Shown here: positions 3,935 through 59,645 of the stretch, piece after piece
How positions within the stretch are numbered: position 1 is the first letter of the stretch
Layout of the letters: every line of letters starts with the position of its first letter
Made by a program: the position numbers and the translations under genes
The notes under the pieces: model-generated
Told to the model about the DNA's origin: nothing
Database searches by the model: none
Seen by the model: only the letters and a program-made list of their open reading frames with translations
Source of the DNA: Macrostomum lignano
Taxonomy: Eukaryota
NCBI GenBank assembly: GCA_002269645.1
Contig: NIVC01001178.1
Location: 124,001 to 188,000 of the forward strand
Direction of reading: 5' to 3'
DNA length: 64,000 bases

Positions 3935-4627
3935 GTTATTCTAGTATCTGTGACTAAAACTTAAAGGCTTTAGTCACAGAATTTTTCACTAATTTTATTA
4001 GATGCACATGTTAAGAAGGAAGACGGATTTTTACCCATTCTTCCAATTCTTCCAATTCTTTCATCTCGAAGTCATAGCCGAATAGAAGGGACGCTGCTGG
4101 GACTAAGATCGCATTGGCCATGCAGGGACAGAGAGGACTTCTGCAGGGGGTTCTTGCGCTGGCGAGCCTTCATACACCACTAAAAGTACTATTTCATTAC
4201 CGAATTTCCAGAAGTACATGTATAAGTACACGTAACTGCACGCTTTTGGCACTAAATGTGTTAACACGTCGACAAGTAGCGATGATGTAGATACATTGTC
4301 ACTTTCGGAGATCTTTAGACTAATGTTTAACTTACTTTAGCCGCTTAACTGCCTGTGACCGCGCCAAAGCGCCAGTCTGGCTCTTAATTTGCATGCTTAA
4401 CATAAGTAGTGGATAGAAATATAGGATATGGCCATACATCCCTCCTTTGTCGGGCACATTCACTCTGCCGCTCTCTTGCTTGCTTCGTTCCTCGTTCGGG
4501 ACATCGTTCATTTGATGTCCATATCCTATATTTTCATCCACTACTTAGAAGTGTTTTTACTAGTGTGTAAAAAAGAAGCTTTATACCCCCCATACTAGGG
4601 AAGAGTTATTTATGTTTTGTAAAAACG

Positions 4628-4817
4628 TTGAGGGTACTGAGGGTGAGGGCAGTCCCCAAAACAAAAAGGGGGTACCTTAATATTTTCACTTTTTTTATAT
4701 TCTATAAATAGGCCTTAGACCCCCCCCACTTCTAGGGGGATTTTAACTTTCATAAAAAACCTAAATTTTCTATACCCACTTTTAAAGATGGAAGGTGCCT
4801 TCACCCTCATGCCCTCA
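4628..4817. repeat. Left TGAGGG/CCCTCA module (candidate terminal inverted repeat)
   Basis: TTGAGGGTACTGAGGGTGAGGGC...GCCTTCACCCTCATGCCCTCA; internally inverted and an inverted match to 18695-18818. Confidence 0.55.
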
Positions 4818-4859
4818 GTTAGTTCTTAAAAATTAATAAAAAAATGTTTTAAGACCTAT

Positions 4860-5120
4860 AATTTTTCAGGATTTTGTAAAACTTAATTTTAAGTTTCCGA
4901 AGTAGAGTAACACTTTTTTAAGGATTTTGTATAACTTAATTTTAAGTGTCCGAAGAAGAGTAACACTTTTTCAGGATTTTGTAACTTTCAAGGCGTGTAT
5001 TTCGTAATTTTCAGGGAGTGTAAAAAAAGTGTAAAACATTTTTCAGTATCTTTGTAATTTTCGGGGAGTGTAAAAAGTATAAAACATTTTTTAAAATTTT
5101 GTAATTTCCGAAGAGTATCT
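4860..5120. repeat. Degenerate ~60-bp AT-rich tandem repeat
   Basis: GGATTTTGTA.AACTTAATTTTAAGT.TCCGAAG.AGAGTAACACTTTTT occurs twice in full, followed by decayed copies. Confidence 0.6.
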
Positions 5121-6954
5121 TAACGACGAGGACTATGAATAGATAAGTAGTGACTCTTCTGAGAATAATAGCGAATTTGAGAGTGATGCCAACTCTTTTG
5201 GGGTGATTCACACTCTGATTAAGCTAGCACGCAGACTATGGTTAGCTACGCGGAGGCCAACTCCATTGAGAGTTGCTCTGAGTCAAAGAGGAAAAATGAA
5301 AAAGGGGAACTACGACATAATTGGCACTCTGCCAAAAACTGCACACGATGTGTCGTTCTTTCATTGCTTGGGGTAATTCAATATATATAGAAAATCCCAA
5401 TACCAAAAATGGTTTGTCAGTAGGTATCCCTATAATACACTCCGAGAGAGAAAAATCTGCCTTGCCAGCCTCCCTTCCAACAGAGTTACTTTTACATCTT
5501 TTAGTATGAGTGATATTGAAGCTGTTATAGAGAACTTAAGTTTTAAAAATATAAGTGAAGTTGGATTAGTAGAAGCTCTAACTGTAGTAGGGGATTATTT
5601 TAGGAACGGGAATTATTGCGGGTTCAAATATGCTTTTTGCCTACTATCAGTAGTTTCAACCCGGGGAAATAATTAGAGCAGGGGTAATTCGCTATTTTTG
5701 GGGTTTCTCTAGAACTACAGAGCAGTTGGGCTCTTGGAGAAGCATCTGGCTTGGCTTTCTCTCGCATAGAGGCGCCTAACCGCAGTACTCCTGTGAAACT
5801 TGTCTCTGCCTGGCTGAAAGCTTGTAATGAGTAAGTAGGCTGGGTTGGAGGGTAATAGTGGATCAGGAAGGGCTCTGGGTAGCTGTATAGGAAGACAGGA
5901 CTATACCTGTTCCAGTTGGTGCTTTTACGGTCTCCCTCAAGTGCCCTCTGAGCGAACAGCCAGCGACCCTATTAAAGCTGGTGTGCCAGAACCAGGACTG
6001 AGTCTGAGCAGGACGAGACCGTTGGCACGGTCACTATAGAAATGGCGGGTTGGCGAAGCAAAGGGTGAAATAGTCCCGGCGATTAGCCCTCCTGCCGCTT
6101 TAAAGATAAGCGACTGTCTGGCAAGAGTACCCGGGGTTTAGTTGGGGGGGAGGCTCCTTTGGGCTGCCACGACCGTAGGGGCGGTCATATGACCGGTTGT
6201 TTTGGCTTTTCTAACCCAGGAGAAGGCACGGGCTTCCCCGAATGGTTCACTCTTACCCCCTCTGGCCCCGGGGAGGTTTATGTACATTTGGCTTGAGTAC
6301 CCGGGGGTGGTGGGCGGTCGGCCCCAGCATGGTAGCCACGGCTCTCGGCCTTCGGGCCATCCCTAATAGGCTAGGGTCTATCCAACTTGGTTTTTTGGGC
6401 ACGGGCTTCCTGACTGGTATGTCGTTCCGCTGTCACTGTCCCCCCCCCGGGGAGGTTTTTGATCTGATTTTTGCTCTTTGTACAGTCCTCTTAGCTCCAA
6501 TTAGGATCTCAGTGTACATAAGTACACTCCCAACCTGGAATCAATTTCTATCTAGTGGCGTAAGAGCCTAATCAGTGGCTGAGGTGCCGAATACTTATTA
6601 CTGTACTGTACTTGGAGAAGCATCTGGCTTACGCGTCTTGCGAACAAGGAATTCGGTAAGAAAAGGAAATAAAAAAGGGAATTATAGGATAGGATTGCAC
6701 AGAGGAGTCTTGCCTCTAAATCTATAACTGGGAGTCTTGCCCAACGCACAACGGGGAAACTTAAGATAGGAACTAATGTAAAGACCAACTTTTGTACAAT
6801 CAAATAACCATTTCCGTTCTTTATTATTAAACTTTTGTGTTAAATAAATCTAAATTGGTGTCCTGATTCAGTTCTTTAAACCTAAATCTAGAATTAGGGA
6901 ACAGCAGGAACCTAGTGGCAGCGAACTACCAAAAGTCTCAACCAGTAGGTAGTA

Positions 6955-7733
6955 AATCCACTAGTAAAATCCTTAGCAATAAGAAAACCAGTAGCCTAAA
7001 CCGCAGGTAGCACGACTTGTCCGTAACCAAGTGGAATCCAGAGGTAGTAAAGCGGCTCAATAGTCAACTCTCCTCCTTAGGAGAGCAAGCCTGCTCTAAG
7101 AAAAAGAAAGTCTCCAAAAAGTAAAAGCACTGAAAAGGAGGAGGCCTCTTTTTGCGAAGCCTTCAGGAGAGAATTGCAGGCGTTGCGCAGTCGGGGTTAC
7201 AAATTGATAGTAAAGCGTTTAGCAGCCTTATTCAAGAATTGGCTGTTGATTTAGCTTCTCAGAGTAAGAACGATATTGAGGAACACTAAAAACATTTCTA
7301 AAGCCCTTACTCATATCGGCTCATTGAAGACTTTGGGAGCATTTGAGCTAGCTAGAACGATTGCTTTTGCAGTAACGATGCATACAGAAGCAGAAGCAAG
7401 AGTTGCAAAGGACTTTCGTATCACAAAGCGTAAGGTTTCAGACAACTGCCGTTTTTACGATTTCTGCATGAAGTTTTCAGCGCTTATTTTTTTGGGTTTA
7501 GTTTGTCAACTATTATTAAGTATAGAGGACCCATTCTGGGAGCTAGTAAAGAGGACGAAGAATTGAAGGAGTTGCTGCAGATCAATCAGGAGACTGTTGA
7601 ATATCTTAGGGGCGAAAAGATCATCGAAAAAAATGTCTCCGCTTGGAGTAATGATGTTAGAGCGAGCTACGATAACCACGAAGAGGAAGGTTCGGTGTTT
7701 TCGATATCTACCGCGGTGCTCCAGGTAGGATGA
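6955..7733 (+). pseudogene. Element-borne unknown gene family, paralog A (intronless, frameshifted)
   Basis: Joined frames give SKILSNKK...EEASFCEAFRRELQALRSRGYKLIVK/AFSS...LGAFELARTI...VAKDFRITKRKVSDNCRFYDFCMKFSALIFLG/FSLSTIIKYRGPILGASKEDEEL. This aligns by eye with paralog C (VAKRLSI...FYGLITKYLAL...G...TLLSY...I). Confidence 0.55.
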
Positions 7734-7899
7734 GAGCTCAACTTTAAGGAAATACTCAATTATTTTGTTTTATCTAATTTTTCTTTAATCTTTTGCCACG
7801 TTTTAGGGTGCAGAAGGCGGTCAAAGCGAGAACATGGACGAAGTTGCTAGTGAAGAAGATCAGCAAGAGGATGATGACCTCTAAAATGTTGATTGATTT

Positions 7900-8290
7900 T
7901 AATAGACGCAAGTCTTTTTTATCATTATAGCTCTGAACAAGCAGAAAAACAGTTTTTTGACAGTTGAAAATATCTGACAAGCTGTCCAGACCCAAAGACA
8001 ACAAAATAGCAGACCTTGTCAAAGTTTAGCTTTTCAGCTTAGCATTTCATTCACAAAGATGGATTTTTATACTATGCTTTTTACTGACAGTAGCAAGACA
8101 TGAGTATGGTTGATATTTTTTGCTGAAGGGAATGAGAGTTGACGAAGTCTTCACCAAAATTTTAGTAGTTCAGAGCTATAATGCATATAGGCTAACAACC
8201 GATATTTTTTCTTCATTTTTTACTGACAGTAGCAAGACATGAGTATGGTTGATGTTTTTTGCTAAAAGGAATGAGACTCATTCGAAATCT
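7900..8290. pseudogene. Possible scrambled packaging ATPase (FtsK/A32-like) remnant
   Basis: Pieces LLTVARHEYG, ILVVQSYN, RLIRN (+) and FLLVQSYN (-) recall the 'ft.gRH...l.QsY...liR.N' segment. The region is locally duplicated and inverted, and no Walker A is seen. Confidence 0.3.
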
Positions 8291-8720
8291 AGTAAAACGT
8301 ATTATCAAGGCAAAAGTTCGTTTTAGATTAGGCATTTATAATCACAACGCCAACAATTGCATAGATTGTCTAACCATATACGGCAATGGTCTAAGCTATG
8401 ACGATGCTGTGAAATTACATAGGGAATACAGAAAACCAAAACTGTTTAGAAAGAGGATTCACTATGCAAAAGACACCATTTGGCATGCAGATATTATTGT
8501 CCTACCACCTGAAAGAGGTTACAAATATGCTCTCACTGTTATAGACGGTTTCACACGTTACGCTTGGGCAGTTCCTTTGAAAAAAGACCGGAGCAGAAGT
8601 TGCAGAAGCATTCCAGAAAATCTTTAAAGATTCAGGAAGACGATCAGAAAGACTTTGTGTTGATGAATGCAAGGAGTATTATAATCAGCATATGCACAAG
8701 CTATACTCGTTTTCGAGAGA
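8259..8720 (+). pseudogene. Polinton-type retroviral-like (DDE) integrase
   Basis: KLFRKRIHYAKDTIWHADIIVLPPERGYKYALTVIDGFTRYAWAVPLK; after a frameshift at ~8585, KTGAEVAEAFQKIFKDSGRRSERLCVDECKEYYN. Truncated at the C-terminus. Confidence 0.85.
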
Positions 8721-8792
8721 CAACGTTAGAAAGAAGGATGAAAAGGGTGAATATATAAACAAGATGTTCTCAATTTATGGCGAGTCCAAGAT

Positions 8793-9403
8793 TTATTTCA
8801 GGACTTCTGGGACCTTTAGTATTTCTATACCTCTGGCAAGAGCTAAAGTCACTAGATCTCTGTAATTCTTTAGTTTCCTCACGGAGATTTTCTCTTGGTT
8901 CTTGGTCATAAAAGTTAGTAAGGCGTCTGTGAAAGGAATTTCCATAGTTTCTGAGCCTTTGAAAACAGAAATATTTTCCTTATTAATGTCGATATAATAT
9001 TCCACTGGTTCATTATAAATGTTTTTTCTCACGTACTTATTCCAAATACATATTTCCCATCATGTTCTACACGCTCTACTGGTCAAAAATTGTTGTCTGT
9101 CACTTTTAGTTGTGATTGTTCTGGTTGCGGCTGTATTTGTGGTTGCGGGCCGCGGCTGTATCTGTGGTGCTTCTGCAATTTTTACCAAAGCCTTTTGCAC
9201 CTAGGTTTCCTGTTTGTCGTCGATAGTTTCTTTACTTGATCAATATTTTTCTTAGCTTCACCATACCCGGGTTCATGAAACTGTGGCTGCTTGGATAAAC
9301 GCATTGTAGGATCGTTGCTCCTTATTGATAAGCCCAGTACTCTCTTTTCTGCTTGTGCTAGCTCCTCCGATTCAGATATCTGCTGCGCATTTTTTCGCTT
9401 CAT
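8793..9403 (-). pseudogene. Adintovirus GasderminX-like accessory ORF (frameshifted)
   Basis: ORFs 9182-9403 and 8793-9032 are linked by a Q/P-rich stretch and DGKYVFGI. YYIDINKENISVFKG...FTDALLTFMTKNQEKISVRKLKNYRDLV resembles the 'D..FGI...Y.IG...T.GL.ELL..K.P...DL..Y..I' pattern of Polinton proteins. Confidence 0.45.
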
Positions 9404-9434
9404 TTCTTACTTTATGTTTTCTTTTTGTTAAAAA

Positions 9435-10493
9435 ATGAACAACTCACTGACACCAGTTTTCTACAAAATTACCAAGCCTATTTTGAGCGATGACAGCACC
9501 ATCAAAGCGACGCAGGTAAGAGTTCCCAGTCAGGAAAATCAGAATGAAACTAATCTTGGTCCTGGTCAAACACTGACATTCACTTACAATGGATGTTCGT
9601 CTCTGGTTAGTGTGCACAGTCTTAAGAGCGTCTTCCATATGACATTCCAATTTAAGACAAAAGTTGGTGCGTATGCGGCTCGTGCTAACGTTGACAAGCA
9701 TGATGCGGATGTGGCTCTGATCAGTAACTTTTGGGCTTATATGTTCAAGGAGTTTAGTGTATCGAATGGGAGCACAGAGTTGGAGCGAATCGCAAATCAG
9801 TCGAATACATTTAATCGACTGACTAGTAACTTTAGCTACACCTTTAAGATGACTAGAGATGATCGCAGTAGAGTGTTGTGCACTGGGGCGAACCACACTA
9901 GGATGAATGTGAAGCTAATCGGAATCGAGCTGTATTTGGAAGTTATTGAGCTAAAGACCGCACGAAAATCGGATTATCTCAAGGCAATAGAGAAGGACAT
10001 TGATGTTGCATACACGGCCTACATGTGTCGAGATGAGCGAAACGAAACTAGAACAAATATCTGCATTAAAGAGGGATCATGCAGCAATCAAAGGTATATT
10101 ATTATTAACATGAGAAACCCAAATAGCATTATACGCTACATGCATGGAGACGTGCGGTCCATTCAGCATGAAATCAGTGATAATCTTTACCCTGCACTGA
10201 CACAAAATGGAGATTTCAGTCAGAACAAGATTAGCAAATTTTACAGCGAGTTGGTCGACTTGGCTGTGAAAGAGAACAATGGAATTGCTATCACTGCTCT
10301 TCAATATGGAACTCTATATCCGATGTTTGGAGCTGATGTGTCTGCCAGACAAATGCCTACTGATAACAGCCCTGTGAATATCGTGACTAACATTGAGAGG
10401 ACTGTCGCAACACCCGTGGACCTGTACATTATCTATGCATTTGAGAGGAAGGTGAAGCTTAACATGAACAACGATTCATCCAGTACAGTTTAA
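9435..10493 (+). CDS. Polinton/adintovirus major capsid protein (hexon-like double jelly-roll), 352 aa
   Basis: Uninterrupted ORF directly upstream of penton. Beta-rich composition, C-terminal YGTLYPMFGADVSARQ ('F..LYP.F.FDVS.Q' motif) and terminal LYIIYAFERKVKL strand. Confidence 0.7.
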   Translation: MNNSLTPVFYKITKPILSDDSTIKATQVRVPSQENQNETNLGPGQTLTFTYNGCSSLVSVHSLKSVFHMTFQFKTKVGAYAARANVDKHDADVALISNFWAYMFKEFSVSNGSTELERIANQSNTFNRLTSNFSYTFKMTRDDRSRVLCTGANHTRMNVKLIGIELYLEVIELKTARKSDYLKAIEKDIDVAYTAYMCRDERNETRTNICIKEGSCSNQRYIIINMRNPNSIIRYMHGDVRSIQHEISDNLYPALTQNGDFSQNKISKFYSELVDLAVKENNGIAITALQYGTLYPMFGADVSARQMPTDNSPVNIVTNIERTVATPVDLYIIYAFERKVKLNMNNDSSSTV

Positions 10494-10512
10494 ATAATTT
10501 TTTGGGTGAAAA

Positions 10513-11355
10513 ATGGAAGTGATTGCTGAAAGATTAAATAATATTATTTCTCACTCTAAGGAGAGAATTCCTATTACAATAACTGGGCGAATTAATGACT
10601 CAAACGGGATACTTGTTGAAAAATTAGAGCAGGCGATTCACCTGGATCCTGGTGCTAATTACCATGTCTATCTTAACGACTTCACTGGTTGGTTAAACGT
10701 TCCCAATGTGACGGAGGCAAATAATAAGTTTTATTACAAATAAAAAAGGTGCGGCAGCAGAAGCTGTGGTATTCCCTAAGAGCATGCAAAGTGAAACGTC
10801 TTTACTAAAAGAGGCCATATTGAGACACCTGATCTGATTAAGCCAGAACTGTTCCTTGTCAAACTAGCCTATGATCTCACTGTAATGAGTGTTCATGCAA
10901 GTTCACAAAGATGCGGAGGTTAAGTTTAAAGATGACACTGGGTATAGGGAATTGGGATTCGAGAAGACAGTTTATAAGGCAGAATCCACGGCGCGGACCG
11001 GCACTCAAGCGCCGAAATCATCGTGGGTCGTTAGCATGTCCCGGGAAAGCGTAAGCGGTTTGTTCTTAGCACCCAATATTGCAAACATTGTAAAGGGTTT
11101 GAATATTCTAATCAGAAGTAATCTCAGGCTTGATTGGGTGCTAAGAGAAAGCGAACGAATATTTTGTACAACATCTCCAACTCTGTTGCTGGAGGACAGA
11201 TGTTGGTAGAGAAACAAAATCCAGTGAAAAATAGTTGTATTGAGTAATAAGGAGATTCACGAGATGGTGCTACAGTTTCAGACTGTAGCTCGATGGGTGT
11301 TGATTTTAACGGCGAAGAGTTTGTATTGACGTTAATCATTGAGAATGTCAGAAAA
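10513..11355 (+). pseudogene. Penton (minor capsid protein), frameshifted
   Basis: AIHLDPGANYHVYLNDFTGWLNVPNVTEANNKFYY; VKFKDDTGYRELGFEKTVY; NIANIVKGLNILIRSNL; ILYNISNSVAGGQMLVEKQNPV; GVDFNGEEFVLTLII. Confidence 0.7.
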
Positions 11356-11772
11356 AAATACAATTGCTTATTTTTTTCTGTAAAGTTATAGTAGCTGTCG
11401 TAAGCTTTTACGTAGGTTACTCCATACTTAAGAAACCAGTGTCTTTGGAGAGCTAGATTAATATTAGGGACATTTATTGTGTGGTCGGCCCAATATTTTC
11501 TCATGTACTCGCTGCATTCTAGTTTGCATTGATACTTACTCTTGTAATTAGGCTCGTGCGCTTTGTATTAGAAACCTGGAAAGACAACTGGAAACATTTT
11601 TAGAGAAAATTTAACTTTTTCGGAGGATTAGCACCCTGCGCTGATGATTTAAAGTCTTAGGGATGTGCTTTCGCGTTGTGAATTAAATGTGGGGAGAATA
11701 ATGCAGATTATTTCTGATTGTTTCGAAGATGCTATGGGTGGATGTCAGTGGATTATGTAGGACACCTGTTAT

Positions 11773-12140
11773 GGTCTGATTCTGTCAGGGATAATATGGA
11801 TGGATTTAATGGTATTATGTTCGAAGTTTTCGGAGCAAGTGCGACTCCTTTTTTTCTGATTCAAAGATAAAATGGATGGATTTAATGGGATTATGTTCGA
11901 AGTTTTCGGAGCAAGTGCGACACCCCGTTTTTCTGATTCTGTCGGGGATAATATGGATGGATTTAGGAGGATTATGTTCGAAGTTATCGGAGCAAGTGCG
12001 ACGCCCCGTTTTTCTGATTCTGTCGGGGATAATATGGATGGATTTAGGAGGATTCTTTTCGGAGTTTTCGGAGCAAGTGCGTCCCAGTCCTTTTTTATTC
12101 TGTCGGGGATAATATGGATGGATTAAATAGGATTATGAAG
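11773..12140 (-). repeat. 81-bp tandem repeat (~4.5 copies) encoding a 27-aa CxxC motif on the minus strand
   Basis: The reverse complement of one unit reads IIPDRIRKTGCRTCSENFEHNPIKSIH. The block is homologous to 16021-16372. Confidence 0.7.
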
Positions 12141-12770
12141 GACGTTTAAAATTTGTGCCAAAAGCCCCCTCATGCATTCTACTTATGAAAATTGTAAAAG
12201 TTAAAAATCACTTAGAAATAGCAACATACACATTCAAAATGTCGGACACGTTTTTTGAAAAATATCAAAACAGATAAAGGAAGTAAAACAGAAAAAAATT
12301 ATGAGTTAAGAGAGAATTACTAAGAGCTCATTCTACAAATTGCAAAAATAACAGTGAATTTAAAGAGAAGGAAGAGGATTACTGCTATGTGTACTCTGTG
12401 TACATTCTCTATTGTTCTTAAAAAGGGAGGAATACTATTAGTAGATAATGGGTTTTGTTTGCGACAAATATCCGACAAACTGTCGGAATTTTTTGCTCAA
12501 CAGAAACCGTCGGAAAACTGCCTTAAATACTGGGAAATACATTGTCGATGTACACAGTCTCTTTCGTCCTAAAAACGGGAATTTACCTATTCAATTCCTC
12601 TCCATGACATGTAAAAGTACGCAGTCTCTATTGTCCTGAAAAAAGGAACTTACCTATTCTATTCCTCTAGCTGCACTGCGCGGCTTCCACCGTACTGAAA
12701 ATCTTTTCACACCCACTCACGCACTCTTTCTAAAAAAACCACATACCCTCCTCCTCCCTAACCGAATATA

Positions 12771-13244
12771 ATGGGACTACCTTTCATTTCTCCTCAGCAC
12801 TGCATCTTTCCCACTAGCACACTCCGTCAAGCTTACGAGATGGCAGGACATGCCACAATAGTAACTAGGCGAAGAGCCGCTGAGTTTGGAAGAGAAAGAT
12901 GTTTAGAGACTATAAAACGCCTTAAAAAAGAAACCACATTTGTCGCCATGAGAGACGAATTAGTTCTTTCGCTTGACGACCAGAAGATCGCGAAAACATC
13001 TTCTTTAATAAAGGCTTTGAAAAGTTTCAAGACCTACGTAAAACAAATTGAAGCTTACAACCGCCGAGAAGAGGAGCTTCTCCAGGGTCGTGCCCTTTGG
13101 AATATTGAGCTTCCACTACCATACGAAGCTCAACAACCACCACAAGAAGCTCAAAAACCACCACAACGATCAGCGCACTCGAAATCCTTCGTGCTGTACC
13201 AATGGACCATTAACTTGAAATTTTGTCAATTTTGTGCAGTTTGA
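12771..13244 (+). CDS. Hypothetical protein within the Polinton-like element (weak similarity to paralogs A-C)
   Basis: 157-aa ATG-initiated ORF. IVTRRRAAEFGR and FKTYVKQIEAYNRREEEL loosely echo the family motifs. Confidence 0.35.
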   Translation: MGLPFISPQHCIFPTSTLRQAYEMAGHATIVTRRRAAEFGRERCLETIKRLKKETTFVAMRDELVLSLDDQKIAKTSSLIKALKSFKTYVKQIEAYNRREEELLQGRALWNIELPLPYEAQQPPQEAQKPPQRSAHSKSFVLYQWTINLKFCQFCAV

Positions 13245-13615
13245 CAGTTTTATGCACAACTAACTATAGATAACATCTCTATGGAATCTGCTGCTGCTAG
13301 CCATACAAAAGCCGAGGCATGAACATTGATTCCTACAATGTCATTGATTTCTACTTACAGTATGATTGTGTTTTATTGTGTGACAAACATCTGACAGCAT
13401 GCCAGAAATATAACATCTTTTAAACTAGCTGACGCCTTGAATCGATAATATGCTGCTTACTGCGGTGCTGAATTTTTCAATGTTATTGTCTTAAAAAAGT
13501 GCCTCCGATTTCTTAAAAATATAATAGAAACTATAGACATGAGAATGAATTACATTCCGAAGAAGGAATTGGAGATTAGCTGGCATAATAATTATACCAA
13601 AATATCAGAGTAAAA

Positions 13616-13900
13616 ATGGGCTTCAGTAAGCACGTATTTCTAGGAAGAGCATTAAACATTCAGGCAGCAATGACTCATTTGCCTCCAATCTTCTCTACTG
13701 GAAAATATCCTGGCGAATTTCATATTCCAGGGTATTCTTTCACAGGTCCAAGTACAAATCTAGACAAGAGACTCAATCCAATTACAGACTGGCCTCGGTA
13801 TGACAGTTTACAAATTAACCCGATAGATTGGACTGCTTACTATCATGACAAAAACACTGAAAACACTTCTTCAAATCTAGAGGAAGCTAGACGAAGCTAG
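13616..13900 (+). pseudogene. Parvovirus-type phospholipase A2 (PLA2X-like), truncated
   Basis: EFHIPGYSFTGPSTNLDKRL...QINPIDWTAYYHD: calcium-loop Y.GPG-like motif and D..A..HD catalytic motif. Ends in a GAAGCTAGAC x3 repeat. Confidence 0.8.
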
Positions 13901-14396
13901 ACGAAGCTAGACGAAGGCTCTTATTCGTTGCATAAATTTGACGAACGTTCGTAAAAATCATGTGCAGAATAGAGAAAAAAGCTTGCCCAGCTCAGGATCC
14001 CAGGATCCCTTAACTAGCTTAAAGGATCCCTTGCCTAGCTTTAGAAACGTCCATTTAGTTCCTTGTTTAAACCCCCAGCCTAACCCCCAGCTTTAACCCC
14101 CAGCTAGGGGTTAAAGCAACCCCCAGCCTTCTCAACCCCCAGCTCTTTCAGCAGTCTTCCTAGTTCTTTACTTGGCGCATGCAATAAAAACCCGCCCCTT
14201 TTCCCAGGCAACCCCAATCAACCATTAATAGAAAATCGGCGGGTTTCCCATATTCTAGAATATTCTAGAATAAAAAGAGAATCCAGTGATTACCGAGCCG
14301 ACACCAATTGTATATAAACAGCCGATTCACACCGCCCCTCGCCTCATCCCGCCTGCTCCGCCGGCAGGGTCCGCTCCGCCTTGGCTCCGCCTCGTC

Positions 14397-15195
14397 ATGA
14401 GTTCCAGCAATGCTGCAAAATTGTGAATACGATAAGGAGTATTAGTAGTAAATAAATATTCTGCCAGTACGGCAATCACCTTTGCTAATCTAGAAGATCA
14501 GGGAAAAGCTTTACTTTTAAACTTTTTAAAAAGTAGACGTAAATTCTATAAAAAGAGCGCTTGGAGAAAGAAAAATCTTCTAATCAAGAAAAAAAAGACC
14601 GCGAAGCTTGGCTTTTAGCTCGCTTAAAGCAAGAAATCATGTCAATAAAAAACGAACAGCTGGTGATTAAAACAAGGTAAGTATTGCTTATTTTTTATTA
14701 TATAGACAATTTCCTCAATACTTTTAAGAGGCAGAAGTTAAAAAGCATTTGAAGGAATTGAAAGAACGTGATAAAAAAGCTAAACAGAAGAAGATAAAAG
14801 AAGCCAGAGAGAAGAAGAAAAAGAGCCTCCACGCAAAGCTTAGAACTTCGATAGTTAATATGCACTATGACCTGTCGCCGACATCACTAGAACTACCACA
14901 TCAAGAGCCAATAGGAGAGGCTGTGAACAAACTACGAAGCCTGGTAAACCACTCCGAAAATGTTAATGCATCGCTATTGTGGCAACGAATAGTGATCGGA
15001 CAATGGCTAACCTACATCCACAGATTGTTGGATAAGAAGGCAGAGCTTATTGTCTATTTAACGGCACAAAAAGTTAAGATTAGTAAGACTGATATCTACT
15101 TTCTTCGGCTTCTTAAGTTGCCAATTAGGGAGATCAAAACAAATTTTAAGATTATCGAAGAGTTGGTGAAGGAGGATGGCGCATACTGGAGATAA
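14397..15195 (+). pseudogene. Element-borne unknown gene family, paralog B (intron donor at 14677)
   Basis: TATA-like TATATAAA at ~14310. Exon 1 pieces IVNTIRSISSK...TAITFANLEDQGKALLLNFLK...EAWLLARLKQEIMSIKNEQLVIKTR|GTAAGT. Exon 2 ends KISKTDIYFLRLLKLPIREIKTNFKIIEELVKEDGAYWR. Acceptor site is ambiguous. Confidence 0.55.
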
Positions 15196-15476
15196 TAAGT
15201 TAATCAATACAAATGTATATTGTTAAATACATTATGCGTTAAACTTTTGCTATTATAACGATTTGAACTGTTATTAAATATTTACAGTCCATGAGGATAT
15301 CATCCTATTGAGGCCCTTCGAAGAGAAGCTAAAAGTCTACACATGCTACACAGTGGTCTGACTACTTTTTATTTAAACTAGCTCATAATATCACATGACA
15401 CTAGATGCATATTTTTGTGCTGTACTTTAAGACAGGATTAAGACATAATTTAGGATTAACACATAAGACATGATTG

Positions 15477-15840
15477 TGCTGTACTCATTCCTATATGCTT
15501 CTTAAACAAGTTTCGAGCGAGAAACCTGCATAGCAACCTGGCAAGCTTTTTTGTGGTGTACTCATTTCCATATGCTTCTTAAACAATTTTCACGCGAGAA
15601 ACCTGCAGAGCAACCTGGCAAGCTTTTTTTATTGTGCTGTACTCATTCCTATATGCTTCTTAAACAAGTTTCACGCGAGAAACCTGCATAGCAACCTGGC
15701 AAGCTTCTTGAACAAGTTTCACGCGAGAAACCTGCATATTAACCTGGCAAGCTTTTTTATTGATCAATGCACTCATTCCTATATGCTTCTTGAACAAGTT
15801 TCACGCGAGAAACCTGCATAGCAACCTGGCAAGCTTTTCT
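15477..15840. repeat. ~80-bp tandem repeat, about 4.5 copies
   Basis: TGTACTCATTCCTATATGCTTCTTAAACAAGTTTCACGCGAGAAACCTGCATAGCAACCTGGCAAGCTTTT starting at ~15477, 15557, 15637, plus a partial copy and a final copy. Confidence 0.9.
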
Positions 15841-15848
15841 TTATTAAC

Positions 15849-15992
15849 GAGAAACCAAATCCAGTGAAAAGAGTTGTATTGAGTAATAAGGAGATTCACG
15901 AGATTGTGCTACAGTTTGAGACTGAAGATGGGGTGGGTGTTGATTTCAACGATGAAGAGTTTGTATTGACGTTAATCATTAAGAGAATGTAA
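15849..15992 (+). pseudogene. Second penton C-terminal fragment
   Basis: EKPNPVKRVVLSNKEIHEIVLQFETEDGVGVDFNDEEFVLTLIIKRM*; a diverged copy of ~11210-11350. Confidence 0.75.
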
Positions 15993-16047
15993 GAAATCAC
16001 AACTGCCTTATAACTTAATAAGGACCCTGCGCTGATGATTTAAAGTC

Positions 16048-16617
16048 TTAGGGATCTGGTAGCACGTTGCGAATTGAATGTGGGGACAAGAAGATTATTT
16101 TTTTGTGAGCGAGTGCGACCCTCGGATTCAGGGATAATATGGATGGATTTAATGCGATTATGTTCGAAGTTTTCGGGGCAAGTAGGACCCCCCTTTTTTC
16201 TGATTCTGTCGGGGATAATATGGATGGATTTAATGGGATTATGGAGGACGTTTTGTGAGCGAGTGCGAGCCCCCTTTTTTCTGATTCTGTCGGGGATAAT
16301 ATAGATGGATTTAATGGGATTTTGGAGGACGTGAAAAAAATTGTCCCAGAAGCCCTCTCATGCATTCTACTGTGCTGTATCGAAATCAATGCCCATTTAT
16401 CAACATGTGCAAGATATACTCTGAATGAATACAAATATGGGGTGCGTTTACAATCGGTGTGTTTTAATATTTTTGCTTTATATTCATCGTAAGCTTTATC
16501 AATTTCTTTAATTAGTCGAGCCTTTCGAGTGGGTGTTTTTATTTGAGAGAAATTTATAATAGAATCATAATACTTTTGTGGCAGAACATTTCGAACATTT
16601 GGGTTATTAGCTTCCAT
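16048..16617 (-). pseudogene. Hypothetical protein with 27-aa tandem repeats (second copy)
   Basis: ATG-initiated ORF followed by 81-bp units. The alternative frame of the units reads NPIKSIHIIPDRIRKKGGPTCPENFEHNRIKSIH. Confidence 0.5.
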
Positions 16618-16759
16618 TTTTCTAGGAAAAATTTAGCTATGTTGTTTTCATTTTTTAAGTCACAAACTATTTTATGAATAGTTTGAAACTTGCATGACCT
16701 CTTTGCTTATATTATGACTCAGAGTTGTTCTTTGGCAGAGTAGGCAAACTTCACTCAAT

Positions 16760-17060
16760 TGCCCCGAAGGGTCGCAGACAGTCTGATAAGTAAGACAGGA
16801 ATTCGGGGTTCTATTCGCGCCACACACAAACAAGCGCGCACCGCAACAATATAGTCGACTAAAGCAAACTTCATTCTATCACCCCGGAGTGTCGCAGGCA
16901 CATTGCGATGACTAACACAGGAATTTGGGGTTCTACTCGCGCTACTCACAAACAAGCTCACGTCGCAACAATAGGATCGATTATAGTATACTTTATTCCA
17001 TCGTCCGAGGGGTCGCAGAGGCAGTTTTATGACTAACACAGGAATTCGGGGTTTTCGAGT
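16760..17060 (+). repeat. Three ~121-bp units with a conserved stem
   Basis: GGAATT(C/T)GGGGTT begins at 16798, 16920 and 17041. Each is preceded by GTCGCAG and a complementary CCCCGAA, CCCCGGA or TCCGAG arm. Confidence 0.75.
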
Positions 17061-17306
17061 GCCCATTCACCAACGGCGCAACACACTGAGTCATGCTTTC
17101 AATTGAAACCAAAACGCGAGCCGAAATTTTTTTCTCACGTGTTGCTTTCGCCATGTGAGTTGAATGGATTGCATGAATTCTATCTATTGTCATAAAAAAT
17201 ATATATATGACCCCCCGCCGCAACTGAATAGCCGCTTACCCCACCAAAACTGAATAGACGTTTCACCCGTTTCAATTAACATAGCAATTTTCGTTATTTT
17301 AAAATA

Positions 17307-18122
17307 ATGGCAGCTAATATTCCAAGCCAAATATTATCAACGATTAAAAGTATCGGCGCAAAGGATTCGACCATAACTACTATAGCAGTTAGTAGATTGC
17401 AAGACAAAGATCAGCAGGCGCTCTTAGCTAATTTAGTGAAGATCGATCAAGAATCTATTAAAAAGACTAGGGGTGAAGGGAACGAAAAAAAGCAAAAGAG
17501 AAGATCGACAGAGGTGCGCTTTGTGGCGAATCTGAAGGTTAAACTAGACAACATACGAAACGAGGCTTGCACGGTCAAGACGAAGTAAGTTTTCATTTTT
17601 ATACGTACATTTAATTAGAGTAAACAAATTGTTTATTACTCGTATATTTTGTTTTTTAGCTTCAACGATGCTAAGCGACTATGCACCGCCGAGGTCAGTC
17701 CAATTGATGATGTCGCCCATCTCCAATTCCAAGAGCTGGAAACGTTTGTGCACAGTTTAAGCCAGTTGGAGTGCATCGCACGGAAAAAGCAGGCCGAAAT
17801 TATAGCCACCTTAAGAGAAAAACACGGGATAACCGTCTAAGGCGTAGCCAAAAGGCTAAGCATCGAAACAAAGTTTGCCCAGCGGCTATATACGTTCTAT
17901 GGCCTCATAACCAAATACCTAGCTCTGCAAGCAACTGGCTACGCTTTTGAAACGCTGCTATCTTACCAGGTGGCCATTGAAAAGTTTGCGCCCGATGATC
18001 CAAACTATGACTGCAAGATGAGGGCGCCTATTACCATTCGATTCGAAGGAGAGGACGATGACGAAGACACCCTACTTGCTGAAAGCATGTCGAGCATGTC
18101 TACGAATACTATGAGGGAGTAG
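17307..18122 (+). pseudogene. Element-borne unknown gene family, paralog C (two exons, one in-frame stop)
   Basis: Exon 17307-17584, GT-AG intron 17585-17659 (phase 2), exon 17660-18122 in frame. One internal TAA at 17838. Acidic C-terminal tail. Confidence 0.7.
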
Positions 18123-18694
18123 TTTTTAATAGCTAACTTAAAAACATTGAATGGACAATAAGCACTAGCCACCTTTTATAAATTGTATTTTTTTATTGTT
18201 CAGAATTTATTCTGAACTTTCAGAATAATGATATAAAATACACAATCTTTATGTCTACCCTATTCTTTTGTGCCTCCAGTAGTCTCTTTTTCTGTTACTA
18301 AACTATATTCAATAATAATAATAACTATATTCAATAATACAATTTGAATGAATTGCAAGTAGGAGACCCAGTAGAGTATCGTGCAGAAAATGGGTGGTAG
18401 TTTTGTTATAGCTGATTGAATATCTAATGCAGAACCTAGAAATAATGGTTTACTGAAGGCCCTTTTATATATTTAAAAATTTACTATTGTTAAATTTGAT
18501 GACAATTTCAAATTGAATATACCCGAAATCGCATTGAATCGAGCCGTGAATCCAACTTTTCTCATGGTTTTACTCACGAAATCGTGAAAATTTAACTTTT
18601 TCAAAATTTTCGAAAATCACAAAAAATCGCTGTTTTCAGACCATTTTCACCTGTTTTTAGTCATTTTTACTCATCTTTAGTGATTTTCAAAATG

Positions 18695-18818
18695 AGTGAG
18701 GGCATGAGGGCGAGGGCACCCTCCTTTTTAAAAAGTATAAAATTCTGAAAAATCTTTGTTCTGTGAAATATTCTAAAGGCCAATGCCCCCACATGCTCTC
18801 ACCCTCAACACCCTCACT
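18695..18818. repeat. Right TGAGGG/CCCTCA module (candidate terminal inverted repeat)
   Basis: AGTGAGGGCATGAGGGCGAGGGCACCCT...CTCTCACCCTCAACACCCTCACT; inverted match to 4628-4817. Followed by TTTTATATAAA palindromic repeats at 18830-18895. Confidence 0.55.
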
Positions 18819-18932
18819 CACAGATATATATTTTATATAAATTTTATATTAATTTTATATAAATTTTATATAAATTTTATATAAATATATATATAATATT
18901 CATATCACACACACCTTGCAACAATGACCTGG

Positions 18933-19031
18933 TAGTAGTAGTGTTATATAAGGGGGTGAGTCATACAGCGAGTTGGCGCGCAATGCGCCCGGGCAATAAG
19001 TGTGGCGCACCCCCTTATAACACTACTACTA
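18933..19031. repeat. AGTAGT-tipped palindrome (Polinton-like terminus or mini-element)
   Basis: TAGTAGTAGTGTTATATAAGGGGGTG (18933-18958) and CACCCCCTTATAACACTACTACTA (19008-19031) are near-perfect inverted arms around a ~49-nt GC-rich core. Confidence 0.8.
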
Positions 19032-20929
19032 ATAATTATCCAGATTTAAATAAATCACGCGCCCTGTTATAGAGTTGTGCGTTTTTACTTTTATTAGCAA
19101 TTATCTATTTTTAATTTAATGTAACAAAAAATATAGTTATTCTTGTTTTGTTTGTTTAATTTATGTGATTTTGCATTGATTTAGGATGTAATATATATCT
19201 TGGAAAATATTTCATATCTAATAAAATCTCCTAATGATGCTAATAAGCAAGCAGCTGCTGCGTCAGTAACTTTAACTTCAGAGAATTATTAATTACTTAT
19301 TAATAGGGAAGAGGAAGAGAAAACACATTAGGTATGGTGATGATTTTTCAATCTCAATATTTTTCTACCCAGCCTAAATGTTATCCAGAGTATGTAATTT
19401 CAAATATATTGTTTTTTCAATAATTAGTAATTATTATTATCAATTTTGAAAGTCTTTCTTTAATTTGGTACATGTGGAAAAAGTCAATTATTCAATACGC
19501 GGAACCAGATCCCAAAGACTTTAATTCCCCAAACCCAGGGTGCTCATCTTCCGAAAAAATTAAATTTTCTATAAAAATGTTTCCAGTCGTCTCTCCAGGT
19601 TCTTATTACAAAGCGCACAAGCCTAATTACAAGAGTAAGCTCTTCCTCTTCAATCCTCTTCAATTTGGCCTTACTCGAGGCCAAAATCCTCTTCAATCTG
19701 GCCTTGCACGAGGCCAAATTTTATCGCAAACTGGCTTTCTGGCCTTCACTTCTCTTCTCTCCACACAAGTGTACAGTCTTGAGCACACTGGTTTCGGCTA
19801 CAATCTCTCTTTCCACCATGCTTCTCCTTCATGCTCGTCACCTCCTCACCCTATGCTCTTTGTACAGAGAAGTCTCACCCCTCACTTTCACACGCCTTAT
19901 GCTTTATCGTAAACTGAGCTATATCGATTACTTTTCCCTGCTTGACTCCAAGATTGTACAGTCTAGAATTTAATGGAATTCTACGGTTAACTGTATATTT
20001 AAGCAAACACAAACACTCGGGCTTCTTCACCCCACATATGCCATTGAGGTGATCTTAATTTAAGCATGTTATGCCCAATGTTATTTTTTAGTCTAATGCA
20101 AACTTCAAAAGGTTTTCCTATCAGTAAAGTACAGCACATGCTTGTGCGGCAGTAAAGATCCGATTGCGTGAAGCGAACACCAATGAAATGCGTTATAGAA
20201 ATCATATATAGCGTTCAGTGAGAATGAAGCCACTCTCCGCCTTCGTCCGCCCTTGTCCGCTCTCGTCCCCTTTGCGCCTCGCGCCTCGCGCCTCGCGCCT
20301 CGCCCTCTCGCCGCACTCGGTTCTCCGCCTCTTTGCCTCCTAAACTGCTCCACTAGCTTGCCTCAACAATCGGGCCTGAACTCTAATATCCCAATCTAAC
20401 AGAGATAAATCTGGACAAACGTCAATTCGTGCAACAATATTGATAAGTAGCCTGTGGCTCCTTATTATTTATATAAAGACTAATTTATATTAAAACATTT
20501 ATATTGTTTTATTATATAAAACAAATTTGCGTAATTGCGTGATCAATATCCTATTAGGAATTGCTACTAACATTGATTAGTAATAAACATCTTGTTGAAG
20601 GTTAGAGATCGAGAGAAACAAATCGAACCTCTGACTTATTTAATTTAACAGAAACATCGAAGATAATAGACATCGTCAAAGAATCTTAAAACGAAACTAA
20701 GGACTGCACAAAATGTCACAGTCGTGCTGCACGCTGAAATTGATCTAAGAAATTTTTCGCTAGACAAAATATATCATAAGTGGATTGAATGTTTGCTTCA
20801 GAAAAAAAAATTCAGAAAAAAAAATTTTTTTAAAGCAGTGCAGGTAAGACTCGAAATCTGTTTTCTGTGTATTTCTGGGTACTTTTTATCATTCCTCATT
20901 GCATTGTTTCATTTCTTACTATTTGAAGA

Positions 20930-21221
20930 AGGTTAAAGACCCAAGGGAAAAGGTTCGAATCAAGGAAAACAAGTTGGAGAGCCGCGAGAGGGAAAACATC
21001 CCACCTGGACTCGAATGTCCCGTGTGTTATAACCAGCTATCGCCATCTAAAAACTGGATTGCCCACATTCGTTCTGTCTGAGATGCGTCCAAAGTTTGTA
21101 CATTGCGGCAACGAACAGTATAAAGTGTCCAGAATGCCGTGCGGAAACATTCAAGACGGTTGATGAGCTGCAAGCAAATGTGGCTATTGAGCGTACGATT
21201 GAAAGTCGTCGAAGATACTAG
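20930..21221 (+). pseudogene. C3HC4 RING-finger (TRIM-like) exon with a frameshift
   Basis: LECPVCYNQLSPSK, then a frameshift in the A-run at ~21050, then KLDCPHSFCLRCVQSLYIAATNSIKCPECRAETFKTVDELQANVAIERTIE. Upstream GTAAG donor at ~20844. Confidence 0.8.
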
Positions 21222-22254
21222 TTTATTAAATTAGTTTCGACTTAAGATTCTACAGTCATCGTGTATTAGTTTTTTTAAATATAAAATGAGTTAAAACACC
21301 TTTGGAAAAAGAAAATATAAACGAGTCTTTGTTTCTTTTCTTTGCTTAAAGTGAAATTACCATTTATGATTCTAGCTTGCGTGCAGAGTGAAACTCTTAC
21401 TCAGTTAGCATGACTAAGCAAATTTTACTCTGAACTGAACTGCGTAGTACCAGGTTTCACAGCCATAGGTCTTATACTCCTTAGACCACGTCACTGCACT
21501 GCAGAGAGATTATAGGGTTCTCGGACCATAGTGTTAGAGCACTCAGGCCAGCTACTTGTCGTGCTAGTTTAAGGACAGACAGAGGGAGAGTTAGTAGGCA
21601 GCAGCAGTAGTCATCAAAGAGTAAAAAACTTAGTAAAATATCCTTTTACACATTCGGCTAATAATGTTTTAACATAGTAGTAAAAATTATTAACTATCCA
21701 ACATTCACATCCTTGCTACCTGCTAATAATGTTTAATAACTCAAGACCTAGAATATAATCCTTGCAGCTCTTCAGGCTTTGGGAATTTTATACAAAAAGT
21801 CATGAAGAGCTCACCGCATATGCCGGTGCTAAGTTCTTGAAGGATAGTCTGAGCGGCAAATTTTTTGCCCTTTGTTTGCTTGAACATTTTGTTTTTATCT
21901 CTAACGCTCTTGCGCAAATCGAATCACTCGAGTTATAAAGTGAGTTTCGGTAGGCAATGACAATAGCTTTTTTGAAAGCCAATTCTTCTGAAAACATCAT
22001 GCGATTTTGAAATTACAAACAGCAAGGTTTACGAGCATTAAACGTTTTACAATTTTACTTTAGTGTATCCAGCTTTGATATTTCCTGGTTACAGTCTAAT
22101 GACTATTCTTGAGTACAAATCAGCAATAGAGAGATAAATGGACGCAGAGTTAAGCAATATTCTAGGAAGGTACATAAGAAACAGAGTTTATTTAAAATAA
22201 GGAAAACCGAATGCAGAGTGAGAAAACTCTCTGTGGTTGTCTGTGTGTGGGGGC

Positions 22255-34961: not shown

Positions 34962-36433
34962 GGAGTACGAGATCTGCTAGCAGAAAATCTGCTAGCCGAA
35001 GTTTGCTAGCGAGAAATTTGCTTGCCGAAATCTGCTAGCCGAAATGTGCTAGCCGAAATGTGCTAGCCGAAATGTGCTAGCCGAAGTTTGCTAGCCGAAA
35101 TCTGCTAGCCGAAATCTGCTAGCCGAAATGTGCTAGCCGAAGTTTGCTAGCCGAAATGTGCTAGCCGAAGTTTGCTAGCCGAAATGTGCTAGCCGAAGTT
35201 TGCTAGCCGAAATGTGCTAGCCGAAATCTGCTAGCCGAAATGTGCTAGCCGAAATCTGCTAGCCGAAATGTGCTAGCCGAAATCTGCTAGCCGAAATGTG
35301 CTAGCCGAAGTTTGCTAGCCGAAATGTGCTAGCCGAAATCTGCTAGCCGAAATGTGCTAGCCGAAGTTTGCTAGCCGAAATGTGCTAGCCGAAATCTGCT
35401 AGCCGAAATGTGCTAGCCGAAATGTGCTAGCCGAAGTTTGCTAGCCGAAATGTGCTAGCCGAAGTTTGCTAGCCGAAATGTGCTAGCCGAAATCTGCTAG
35501 CCGAAATGTGCTAGCCGAAATCTGCTAGCCGAAATCTGCTAGCCGAAATGTGCTAGCCGAAATGTGCTAGCCGAAGTTTGCTAGCCGAAATGTGCTAGCC
35601 GAAATCCGCTAGCCGAAATGTGCTAGCCGAAGTTTGCTAGCCGAAATGTGCTAGCCGAAGTTTGCTAGCCGAAATGTGCTAGCCGAAATGTGCTAGCCGA
35701 AATGTGCTAGCCGAAGTTTGCTAGCCGAAATGTGCTAGCCGAAATCTGCTAGCCGAAATGTGCTAGCCGAAATGTGCTAGCCGAAATGTGCTAGCCGAAA
35801 TGTGCTAGCCGAAATGTGCTAGCCGAAACCTGCTAGCCGAAGTTTGCTAGCAGGAATTTTGCTAGCAAGGATTTTGCTAGCTGCCTTGCTCTCGTAGCTG
35901 TTGCATGTTATTTGCTGTGTTTTGATTCCGATTTGAGCTGCTTTGATTCGTACGAGTAAATATACAACTTATATACCATATACGGCCACTACCAGCCATT
36001 AATTTCTGATTTAGTAATTTTTAATTGCATTATATTACGATACAACAATGCAGGCTGCAATTATTATTATATATTGCAATTTGCAGATCACTGCTAATAA
36101 GCACGACAAAGAGAGTCATTAGAGCGAAAAACGCAAATTTATTTGTCATGCATGATAAGTCCTGCAAAGTTTCTTGCGAAATTGAACAAGAAAAAATGTC
36201 TCTAGCAAATTACAACTTCGTAAATTGCTGTTCGCCGGTTTTGGTTAGATTATCGCTAACAGATTTCGGCTAGCAAAATCCTCGCTAGCAAAATTCCTGC
36301 TAGCAAACTTCGGCTAGCAGATTTCCTGCTAGCGGATTTCGGCTAGCACATTTCGGCTAGCGGATTTCGGCTAGCACATTTCGGCTAGCAAACTTCGGCT
36401 AGCAGATTTCCTGCTAGCAAATTTCATAGACCC
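34962..36433. mobile_element. Foldback/MULE-like non-autonomous element with 15-bp modular TIRs
   Basis: About 60 copies of GCTAGCCGAA(A/G)T(G/C/T)T in the left arm (34970-35880) and about 10 inverted copies in the right arm (36255-36420). GG..CC termini; 9-bp TSD GCTCTATTG at 34953-34961 and 36434-36442. Confidence 0.9.
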
Positions 36434-57700: not shown

Positions 57701-58562
57701 CGCTCTGATATTATCTCATGCTCTGGTCTTATCTCATCTCACGCTCTGATCTCATCTCATCTTACGCTCTGATCTCATCTCATCTCACGCTCTGATCTTA
57801 TCTCACTTTAATCTCACCTCACGCTCTGATATTATCTCATGCTCTGGTCTTATCTCATCTCACGCTCTGATCTCATCTCATCTTACGCTCTGATCTCATC
57901 TCATCTCACGCTCTGATCTTATCTCACTTTAATCTCACCTCACGCTCTGATATTATCTCATGCTCTGGTCTTATCTCATCTCACGCTCTGATCTCATCTC
58001 ATCTTACGCTCTGATCTCATCTCATCTCACGCTCTGATCTTATCTCACTTTAATCTCACCTCACGCTCTGATATTATCTCATGCTCTGGTCTTCTCTCAC
58101 GTTGTGGTCTTATCTCACGCTCTGATCTTATCCCAAGCTCTGATATTATCTCACAATATGTTCTAATCTCATCATCTGCTCTCATCTCACGCTCTGCTCT
58201 CATCTCATGCTCTGCTCTCATCTCACCATTTGCTTTTATCTCAATATGGTCTCATCTTACAATCTGTCCTCATCCCACTATCTGTTCTAATCTCACCGTC
58301 TGCTCTCATCTCACCCCGCCTAAATCTCGACCAGGTAACCATGGGCTCCGAGTCAGAAGAGGGCGGCCTCTGGCCTCACGCCGGAGCTACCCAGGCCATC
58401 GGGCCGCTCGGTGGCCAACACGTAATCCGCGGGGTCACCGAGTGCCTCGTTGACGACGCTAAAAAAGTGGTTACCACGCCCGCGTTCATGTGCGAAGCTC
58501 CGCTGCATCAGATCTACGAAGGAGTCGGCGCGTTGGTTCGAGAAGTGCTGCGTCTGGCCTAG
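54704..58562 (+). CDS. GATD3: ES1 protein homolog / glutamine amidotransferase-like class 1 domain protein 3, probably mitochondrial (264 aa)
   Basis: Exons 54704-54841, 54916-54968, 55058-55168, 56907-57171, 58335-58562; all GT-AG, 795 nt, in frame. [64 protein letters not shown]; basic Ser-rich N-terminal extension. Confidence 0.95.
55240..56830. repeat. 25-bp minisatellite in GATD3 intron 3 (~60 copies)
   Basis: Unit TTGATTGATGGAGATTCAGAATCC(G/C). Confidence 0.97.
57235..58320. repeat. 18-bp repeat plus compound ATCTC-based array in GATD3 intron 4
   Basis: ATCTCAGCATCTGCTCTC x~10, then a recurring ~120-bp block (CACTTTAATCTCACCTCACGCTCTGATATTATCTCATGCTCTGGTC). Confidence 0.92.
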
Positions 58563-59535: not shown

Positions 59536-59645
59536 TTCATAAAGTTTCACCCGTTCTAATGTAAATTTTACAATTGCTTTCTCTACACATGGTTATTCTA
59601 TTAATAATTTTCAGCGCAAAAAATTGAATGTATAAAAAATGAAAA

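Follow-up and report, generated by a model that had tools for sequence, protein, structure and literature searches.

The stretch analysed here, called the window throughout, comprises 64,000 nucleotides of Macrostomum lignano (contig NIVC01001178.1 of assembly GCA_002269645.1, C1178:124001-188000), and within it an initial annotation had placed a single endogenous adintovirus or Polinton that carried virion genes and an integrase and showed no polymerase. We find that the region at 4405-19031 is no single polymerase-less virus; its pieces come from two Polinton/adintovirus families that both belong to this genome, here named A and B, and together they form a mosaic. Family A contributed the capsid, a putative penton, a stub formerly labelled 'GasderminX-like' and right ends at 12184 and 16371, and family B with its close subfamilies contributed the integrase and PLA2 pieces, the accessory genes and both outer ends. 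The core genes at the locus are broken, with the capsid shortened, the penton fragmented and the integrase truncated, and apart from a single long open reading frame (ORF; 9435-10490, 352 amino acids (aa)) the frames are short. The region looks like one element because the capsid arm of A happens to sit between B-type ends. Genome-wide searches covered the 764-Mb assembly, the best 40-150 candidates of each search were scored, and counts of scored places given below are lower bounds. The pieces derived from the two families are as follows (TIR, terminal inverted repeat).

4405-4895, plus strand: left end of a B-type Polinton subfamily, starting with AGTAGT and carrying a 141-nt terminal DNA hairpin (4405-4545)
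7023-8272, plus strand: region holding a broken accessory gene (7255-7730) of the type that adjoins B-type TIRs; this DNA was found only here and in the related locus C293
8273-8791, plus strand: middle fragment of the family-B PLA2-integrase ORF, aa 157-329 of 487, 87-92% identical in DNA to B copies
8796-9406, minus strand: N-terminal half of a family-A 394-aa ORF, frameshifted, conserved C-terminal domain absent
9435-10493, plus strand: major capsid gene of family A, reduced to 352 aa by the loss of 76 codons, in frame, at ~9797/9804
10510-11349, plus strand: family-A putative penton in six pieces and two frames, 287 aa in sisters
11359-12184, plus strand: right TIR of family A, which contains 81-bp tandem repeats and ends at 12184
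12185-13612, plus strand: subterminal DNA that precedes the PLA2-integrase in B-subfamily copies C292, C1810 and C934 (89-92%)
13613-13888, plus strand: PLA2 domain, N-terminal part (aa 35-129) of the B PLA2-integrase ORF, truncated
13916-16371, plus strand: internally deleted family-A piece, from left subterminal DNA to a partial right TIR ending at 16371
14436-15195: accessory gene with a probable intron, in this second A piece
15473-15836: 81-bp tandem array, in the second A piece
15849-15989: penton tail, in the second A piece
16372-18380, plus strand: arm of family B that runs from the primase site to the TIR
17307-18119: accessory gene with a probable intron and an internal stop, within the B arm, 47% aa identity to the B terminal gene
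18381-19031, plus strand: family-B TIR, 81-89% identical to B TIRs, with a 97-nt terminal hairpin AGTAGT...ACTACT (18934-19031)

The window capsid is certainly homologous to the double-jelly-roll major capsid protein. A genome search with its ORF gave 656 candidate places; 112 of them were scored, and the 111 sisters align with the ORF in two pieces at 91-93%. An open 428-aa ORF is present in 27 of the 29 sister loci examined, and the window copy lacks 76 of these codons, in frame. A model of a natural sister capsid, built with a 75-sequence alignment, reached a predicted local distance difference test score (pLDDT) of 92.4 and matched the major capsid proteins of Sputnik, PBCV-1, iridovirus and mavirus (best E 3.8e-17; Sputnik 4e-17), and the Pfam double-jelly-roll family matched 70 of the 75 alignment members; the window protein is 95% identical in amino acids to the modelled sister. 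A PDB sequence search with the capsid profile returned nothing significant. The capsid ORF of the initial annotation is a deletion product of the 428-aa gene. Mapped on the sister model, the deletion takes out strand 184-191, predicted to lie in the core of the first jelly roll, together with four helices, and the window protein is probably unable to fold normally; the 352-aa ORF folded alone, with no alignment, gave a pLDDT of 29.8, too low to inform.

The penton label rests on synteny, on 22% similarity to its counterpart in family B and on Atlas viral clusters at 0.98, and a PDB sequence search with it returned nothing significant; a penton had been proposed here, and a penton-like region does exist at 10510-11349, split as listed. 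As for the 'GasderminX-like' ORF, it is the frameshifted half of the 394-aa ORF of family A, and this ORF family showed no gasdermin similarity in Pfam or PDB sequence searches. GasderminX itself is a gene of the virion module in beta-class adintoviruses. Two long frames that might be taken for genes (11769-12132 and 16040-16632) are largely translated 81-bp TIR repeats.

Six top-scoring capsid sisters share with the region essentially only 8796-12184, besides the same TIR and penton-tail repeats, and upstream of their capsids lie an A32 ATPase, adenain and pPolB, with an integrase in most. All eight A copies that were mapped on both sides, two of them chosen for matching other window pieces, contain pPolB-A sequence, adenain and ATPase, the pPolB being partial in C217, C1638 and C273. 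Among 12 further A copies down the match list, pPolB-A was found within a 4-kb test stretch in 10; at that place one of the remaining two has a family-B element and the other the pPolB of a third family. Genome-wide there are 974 candidates for pPolB-A (200-aa query) and 656 for capsid A; of the 150 pPolB-A candidates scored, at 83-100% identity, five lie in open frames of at least 1170 aa, and among the 111 capsid rows listed, no fewer than 50 have a listed pPolB 3-30 kb upstream on the same strand. The A copies of C142 and C217 match PF03175, PF00665, PF04665, PF00770 and PF21738, with rve and PF21738 below their cut-offs. Family A is thus a complete Polinton with pPolB, integrase, ATPase, protease and capsid in one element.

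The integrase piece, the PLA2 piece and the right end have no match to A and match family B at 81-92% DNA identity. In family B, PLA2 and integrase form a single ORF, a 487-aa frame matching PF08398 plus rve, and the window holds parts of this ORF in the wrong order, aa 157-329 at 8273-8791 and aa 35-129 at 13613-13888. Thus, where an integrase had been annotated there is rve-like sequence (Pfam rve match at 8253-8624, E 3.9e-6, below cut-off), but only this middle part of the sister frame, with one frameshift near 8580. The fragment stops just short of the IERFN motif of its sisters, which we take to hold the third catalytic residue of DDE integrases. The PLA2 named initially is confirmed as a PLA2-like piece, the PF08398 match at 13592-13897 (E 0.0015) lying below cut-off.

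Other genes of B copies are a 460-aa capsid (20% identical to the window capsid), an ATPase, a putative penton, an F5/8-domain gene, pPolB and a primase, and the core genes are bounded by TIRs of 630-880 bp. Sequence of pPolB-B occurs in C620, C1101 and C3947, where C620 and C1101 share flanks and represent one insertion. By its pPolB motifs (in ORF pieces without a PF03175 match), rve, Pox_A32 and double-jelly-roll-like capsid, family B is a Polinton with pPolB, integrase, ATPase, capsid and TIRs. Sisters of both families carry pPolB. The suggestion of a deletion derivative is supported, and so is the attribution to Polintons or adintoviruses; both parent families carry that gene set.

Further observations concern family B itself. 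Prim-Pol, PriCT-2 and D5_N primase domains adjoin its pPolB, a combination of pPolB with primase-helicase that PMC3671162 calls uncommon. Places of the PLA2-integrase, primase and F5/8 genes are L087:8230-9690 (minus), L090:4756-6789 (minus), L089:2584-3627 and L096:8110-8808, and in some B copies an Eco47II-like nuclease ORF is inserted in the PLA2 part. C3326:13552-20982 (L151) holds a B derivative of 7.4 kb with a TIR at each end, in which PLA2-integrase and primase are retained and capsid and pPolB are reduced to scraps; it is a candidate non-autonomous element, and C3327 is its apparent duplicate. Literature searches, mainly of openly readable papers without preprint supplements, returned no description of hairpin-ended Polinton TIRs or of a PLA2-integrase fusion, and bioRxiv 10.1101/2023.08.22.554363 has no passage on PLA2 or hairpins.

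For the region itself, 104 frames (102 from 5014-20933 and two flanking), chosen among ~170 listed frames of at least 45 aa, were scanned against Pfam. The sole relevant matches were the rve and PLA2-like ones given above, and pPolB, ATPase and protease families matched none of the 104 frames at E<=0.1. Moreover, tblastn within 4405-19031 using the pPolB, ATPase, adenain and primase of the sister families, together with the pPolB of the third family, gave no match except a stretch of 17 residues. This stretch (16375-16425) matches a B polymerase frame and is subterminal DNA, the frame running on past a deletion in that B copy. The absence of pPolB from the region, as annotated initially, is hence upheld with the pPolB of three resident families, and the doubtful ATPase and protease remnants reported with it were found by neither method in 4405-19031.

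The product of the broken accessory gene at 7255-7730 is 45-53% identical in amino acids to that of C1884, the C293 version is 31% identical to the B terminal gene, and an Atlas search with the latter returned unnamed clusters only (0.92-0.94). The initial annotation saw a single element that gave much of its length to unrecognised accessory genes; much of that length is TIR and tandem-repeat DNA, an unrelated 1.4-kb repeat and three copies of one accessory gene type that is known in sister Polintons too, and the pieces stem from separate insertions of two families plus that repeat. Of the three findings that the initial annotation named as refuting it, two are borne out, pPolB in sister copies and the separate origin of the pieces; the third, a capsid without a jelly roll, is not, the sister capsid being a double jelly roll.

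Inverted modules had been taken as the element ends. However, the two outer ends do not make up a TIR pair: they derive from different B-type subfamilies and have in common only a stretch of 63 bp at 78%, compared with 630 bp at 99% and 881 bp at 95% in genuine family-B TIR pairs. The left end lies at 4405 and not at 4628, and is 90% identical to a hairpin in C277 and 71-73% identical to C947, C292, C1810 and C934. There is no target-site duplication (TSD) at 4405/19031, where the 6-bp flanks differ, although a separate repeat at 4063-4405 abuts the left end and could mask one. Two other inverted repeats were rejected as boundaries: 11535-11638/19536-19639 is debris of A TIRs with its second arm outside the region, and 13613-13694/18385-18466 arises where the B TIR overlaps the start of the B PLA2 ORF.

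The tips of B-type TIRs form hairpins of 95-148 nt bounded by AGTAGT and ACTACT (17 distinct natural sequences), with z scores of -4.6 to -11.2 against crude shuffles. Hairpin arms agree slightly more within a copy than between copies (0.90 vs 0.87, and 0.96 vs 0.90), a comparison biased by a pre-filter on arm identity. Besides window 4405-4545 and 18934-19031, such tips were seen in L083, L089, L090, L094, L134, L140, L143, L147, L151 and L154, and at the family-A ends inspected no terminal hairpin was found.

Only C293 matches throughout the region, and its flanks match too: identity is 95-98% across window positions 3-27744 and 99.2% in a further 3.3 kb upstream of these. Because flanks are shared at 95-99%, C293 is the same locus, as an allele or a duplicate. 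It is without 9453-13198 (capsid and penton included) and 15993-17425, retains ~1 kb lost from the window, and has a hAT insertion. The inserted hAT/Spin-doc-type transposase (L081:8747-10000, L082:1-561) is absent from the window. The junction between B integrase and A arm (8793) interrupts the frames of both genes. Of its 188 candidate places 40 were scored, and two of these span it, the window and C293; a set of independent copies alike in internal structure and with intact ends was not found, both places being the same locus and the count a lower bound. Junctions 7022, 8273, 8793, 14697 and 15849 are spanned by C293 at 97-99.5%. Insertion of A into B is seen directly at related places: in C293 the left terminus of A lies inside the B PLA2-integrase ORF, and C273 has an A element within B with a target duplication matching at 5 of 6 positions. 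C1830 shows a B end directly next to an A gene that has been cut.

The locus has probably also decayed without selection. Pairwise comparison of the window capsid with 27 natural sisters gave on average 29 silent and 25 replacement differences, with a ratio of nonsynonymous to synonymous change (dN/dS) of 0.23, and comparison among 16 of those sisters gave 14 silent and 2 replacement differences (dN/dS 0.04). The window capsid differs at ~47 sites from the closest sister examined. The excess of replacements would fit a few percent of unselected change since insertion, an amount of the same order as the distance between the window and C293.

Two autonomous families, insertion of A into B, locus-specific deletions and broken genes are all present in these data, and the most probable overall reading, which we hold with considerable confidence, is an inert fossil, in which two autonomous Polinton families were inserted one into the other and parts of both were later deleted. 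In such a history, family-A elements would have inserted into B-type elements, as at the sister loci and in C293, and deletions or recombination between copies would then have taken out the cores of both families. One deletion may have fused the middle of the B integrase to the middle of the A 394-aa gene, which relative to an intact A would leave out its ATPase, protease and pPolB. Recombination or adjacent deletion at A copies could have removed the B core from the integrase to the primase site, and a second deletion the left half of an A copy, so that on the right side a shortened A piece would stand in place of the B capsid, ATPase, penton, pPolB and primase.

Several facts weigh against the fossil reading. 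Five junctions (9800, 12184, 13199, 13900 and 16371) occur in this contig only and are known from the assembly alone; the capsid deletion is in frame and leaves the ORF open; and scoring in the genome searches was confined to the best 40-150 candidates. In addition, C283 repeats the window's order of accessory gene, tandem array, penton tail, A TIR and B arm, the junction of tandem array and penton tail being common to both (96.5%) and the join of A end to B arm lying 47 bp from that of the window, so that at least two separate loci had part of the mosaic. This order would suit a B shell with a shortened A that helper Polintons copied in one piece before its decay, a short-lived non-autonomous composite, and both the 7.4-kb B derivative of C3326, without capsid or pPolB, and the mobile PolB-less polintons reported for insects in bioRxiv 10.1101/2025.02.07.637071 speak for it. 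We regard such a composite as improbable, though not negligible: among 40 scored places the tandem-array region occurs in three, namely the window locus, C293 as its duplicate, and C283; the 47-bp offset separates the A-end breakpoints of the two loci; the piece common to C283 has no capsid gene; and the sharing is explained equally well if A prefers that part of B as a target.

The initial annotation had also offered a helper-dependent lineage of adintoviruses, which would keep virion genes and integrase and borrow polymerase, ATPase and protease. The open capsid ORF, the lack of pPolB in the region and the abundance of potential helpers in the genome speak for it, but the capsid is without a strand predicted for its core, the penton is split into six, the integrase has both a truncation and a frameshift, the family that supplied the virion genes is not the one that supplied the integrase, the outer ends are mismatched, the duplicate C293 has no capsid at all, and no third copy of the key junction at 8793 was found among the 40 scored places; we consider this proposal very improbable and do not retain it. 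That the mosaic is partly an assembly chimera of repeats is scarcely credible. The five junctions confined to this contig and the wealth of near-identical Polinton copies in the genome would allow it, yet the other five junctions recur in the independently assembled C293, and the ~47 capsid differences from the closest examined sister mean that the capsid is not from a mis-joined young copy.

Four known systems come closest. The gene set of adintoviruses and the definitions of PLA2X and GasderminX are given by Starrett et al. (PMC8502044), and as described there Polintons/Mavericks and adintoviruses share with our parent families rve, pPolB, packaging ATPase, double-jelly-roll capsid, putative penton and PLA2, to which the adenain match in family A and ends beginning with AGT repeats may be added. 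The region differs in having two families, no TIR pair and broken core genes, and family B differs in its fusion of PLA2 to the integrase and in the Prim-Pol/PriCT-2/D5_N primase adjoining pPolB. According to Barreat and Katzourakis (PMC8097293), 96% of vertebrate Maverick loci are eroded by stops, frameshifts, insertions and TIR loss, whereas intact ones have TIRs and 6-bp TSDs; our locus fits the eroded state and differs as a nest of two families, not one eroded copy. The PolB-less polintons of Pieris and other insects (bioRxiv 10.1101/2025.02.07.637071) are alike in the loss of polB beside an inserted element and in having complete relatives in the genome, but they are TIR-flanked, near-identical in multiple copies and apparently mobile, and here there is one locus only, with virion genes that are broken and ends that do not match. 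The Polinton remnants of the C. elegans eri-6/7 locus (bioRxiv 10.1101/2024.01.15.575659) resemble the locus in repeated insertion at one site and in deletion or rearrangement that varies between haplotypes; they differ in that no host gene effect is shown for the present locus.

The DNA of the region outside the assigned Polinton pieces is the following.

4896-5582, no strand assigned: AT-rich tandem repeats, present only here and in the duplicate locus C293
5583-7022, no strand assigned: unrelated dispersed repeat (777 candidates, 40 scored, 82-95% identity)

The inner ~860 bp of the dispersed repeat (5753-6610) is flanked by 20-bp direct repeats (5733-5752 and 6611-6630). At some loci the repeat occurs as pairs 8-10 kb apart, and it is possibly the terminal repeat of a retroelement. 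Beyond the region, Polinton debris at 19391-20273 and 21747-22134 comprises A-type TIR pieces, an accessory-gene piece and a weak adenain-like stretch (21798-21896, E 0.002). At 1202-1890 two overlapping frames have zinc-knuckle and cold-shock-domain Pfam matches, probably a remnant of a retroelement gag-like gene or of a host gene. Minisatellite arrays lie at 34975-36425 (14 bp, partly inverted), 55242-56800 (25 bp), 57236-58315 (18/23 bp), 59022-59537 (33 bp) and 61810-62610 (28 bp).

Elsewhere in the genome, capsid frames of ~493 aa, 27-31% identical to those of B, mark a third Polinton family and make up most of the best 131 of 464 candidates, and L162 has a pPolB unlike those of A and B. 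An A marker lies within 30 kb of 8 of 58 listed B loci, compared with ~1 expected naively and with repeat-rich regions uncontrolled, and another A lies 15-30 kb away at 10 of 205 A loci. One may speculate that Polinton families insert preferentially into one another, that pPolB-less composites with B-type ends could be moved in trans, that the hairpin TIRs, PLA2-integrase fusion and primase of B would represent a distinct replication mode allowing this, and that the window and C283 would be relics of it; we think this unlikely.

By itself the locus has little weight: Polintons are most often found in a degraded state, and this is a further example. It serves as a caution that what looks like a 'polymerase-less virus' in a single stretch of DNA can prove to be two complete families nested together. 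The genome is of more interest than the locus, with at least three Polinton families, hundreds of young copies and a capsid under purifying selection, and the features of family B and a possible nesting preference are leads worth keeping.

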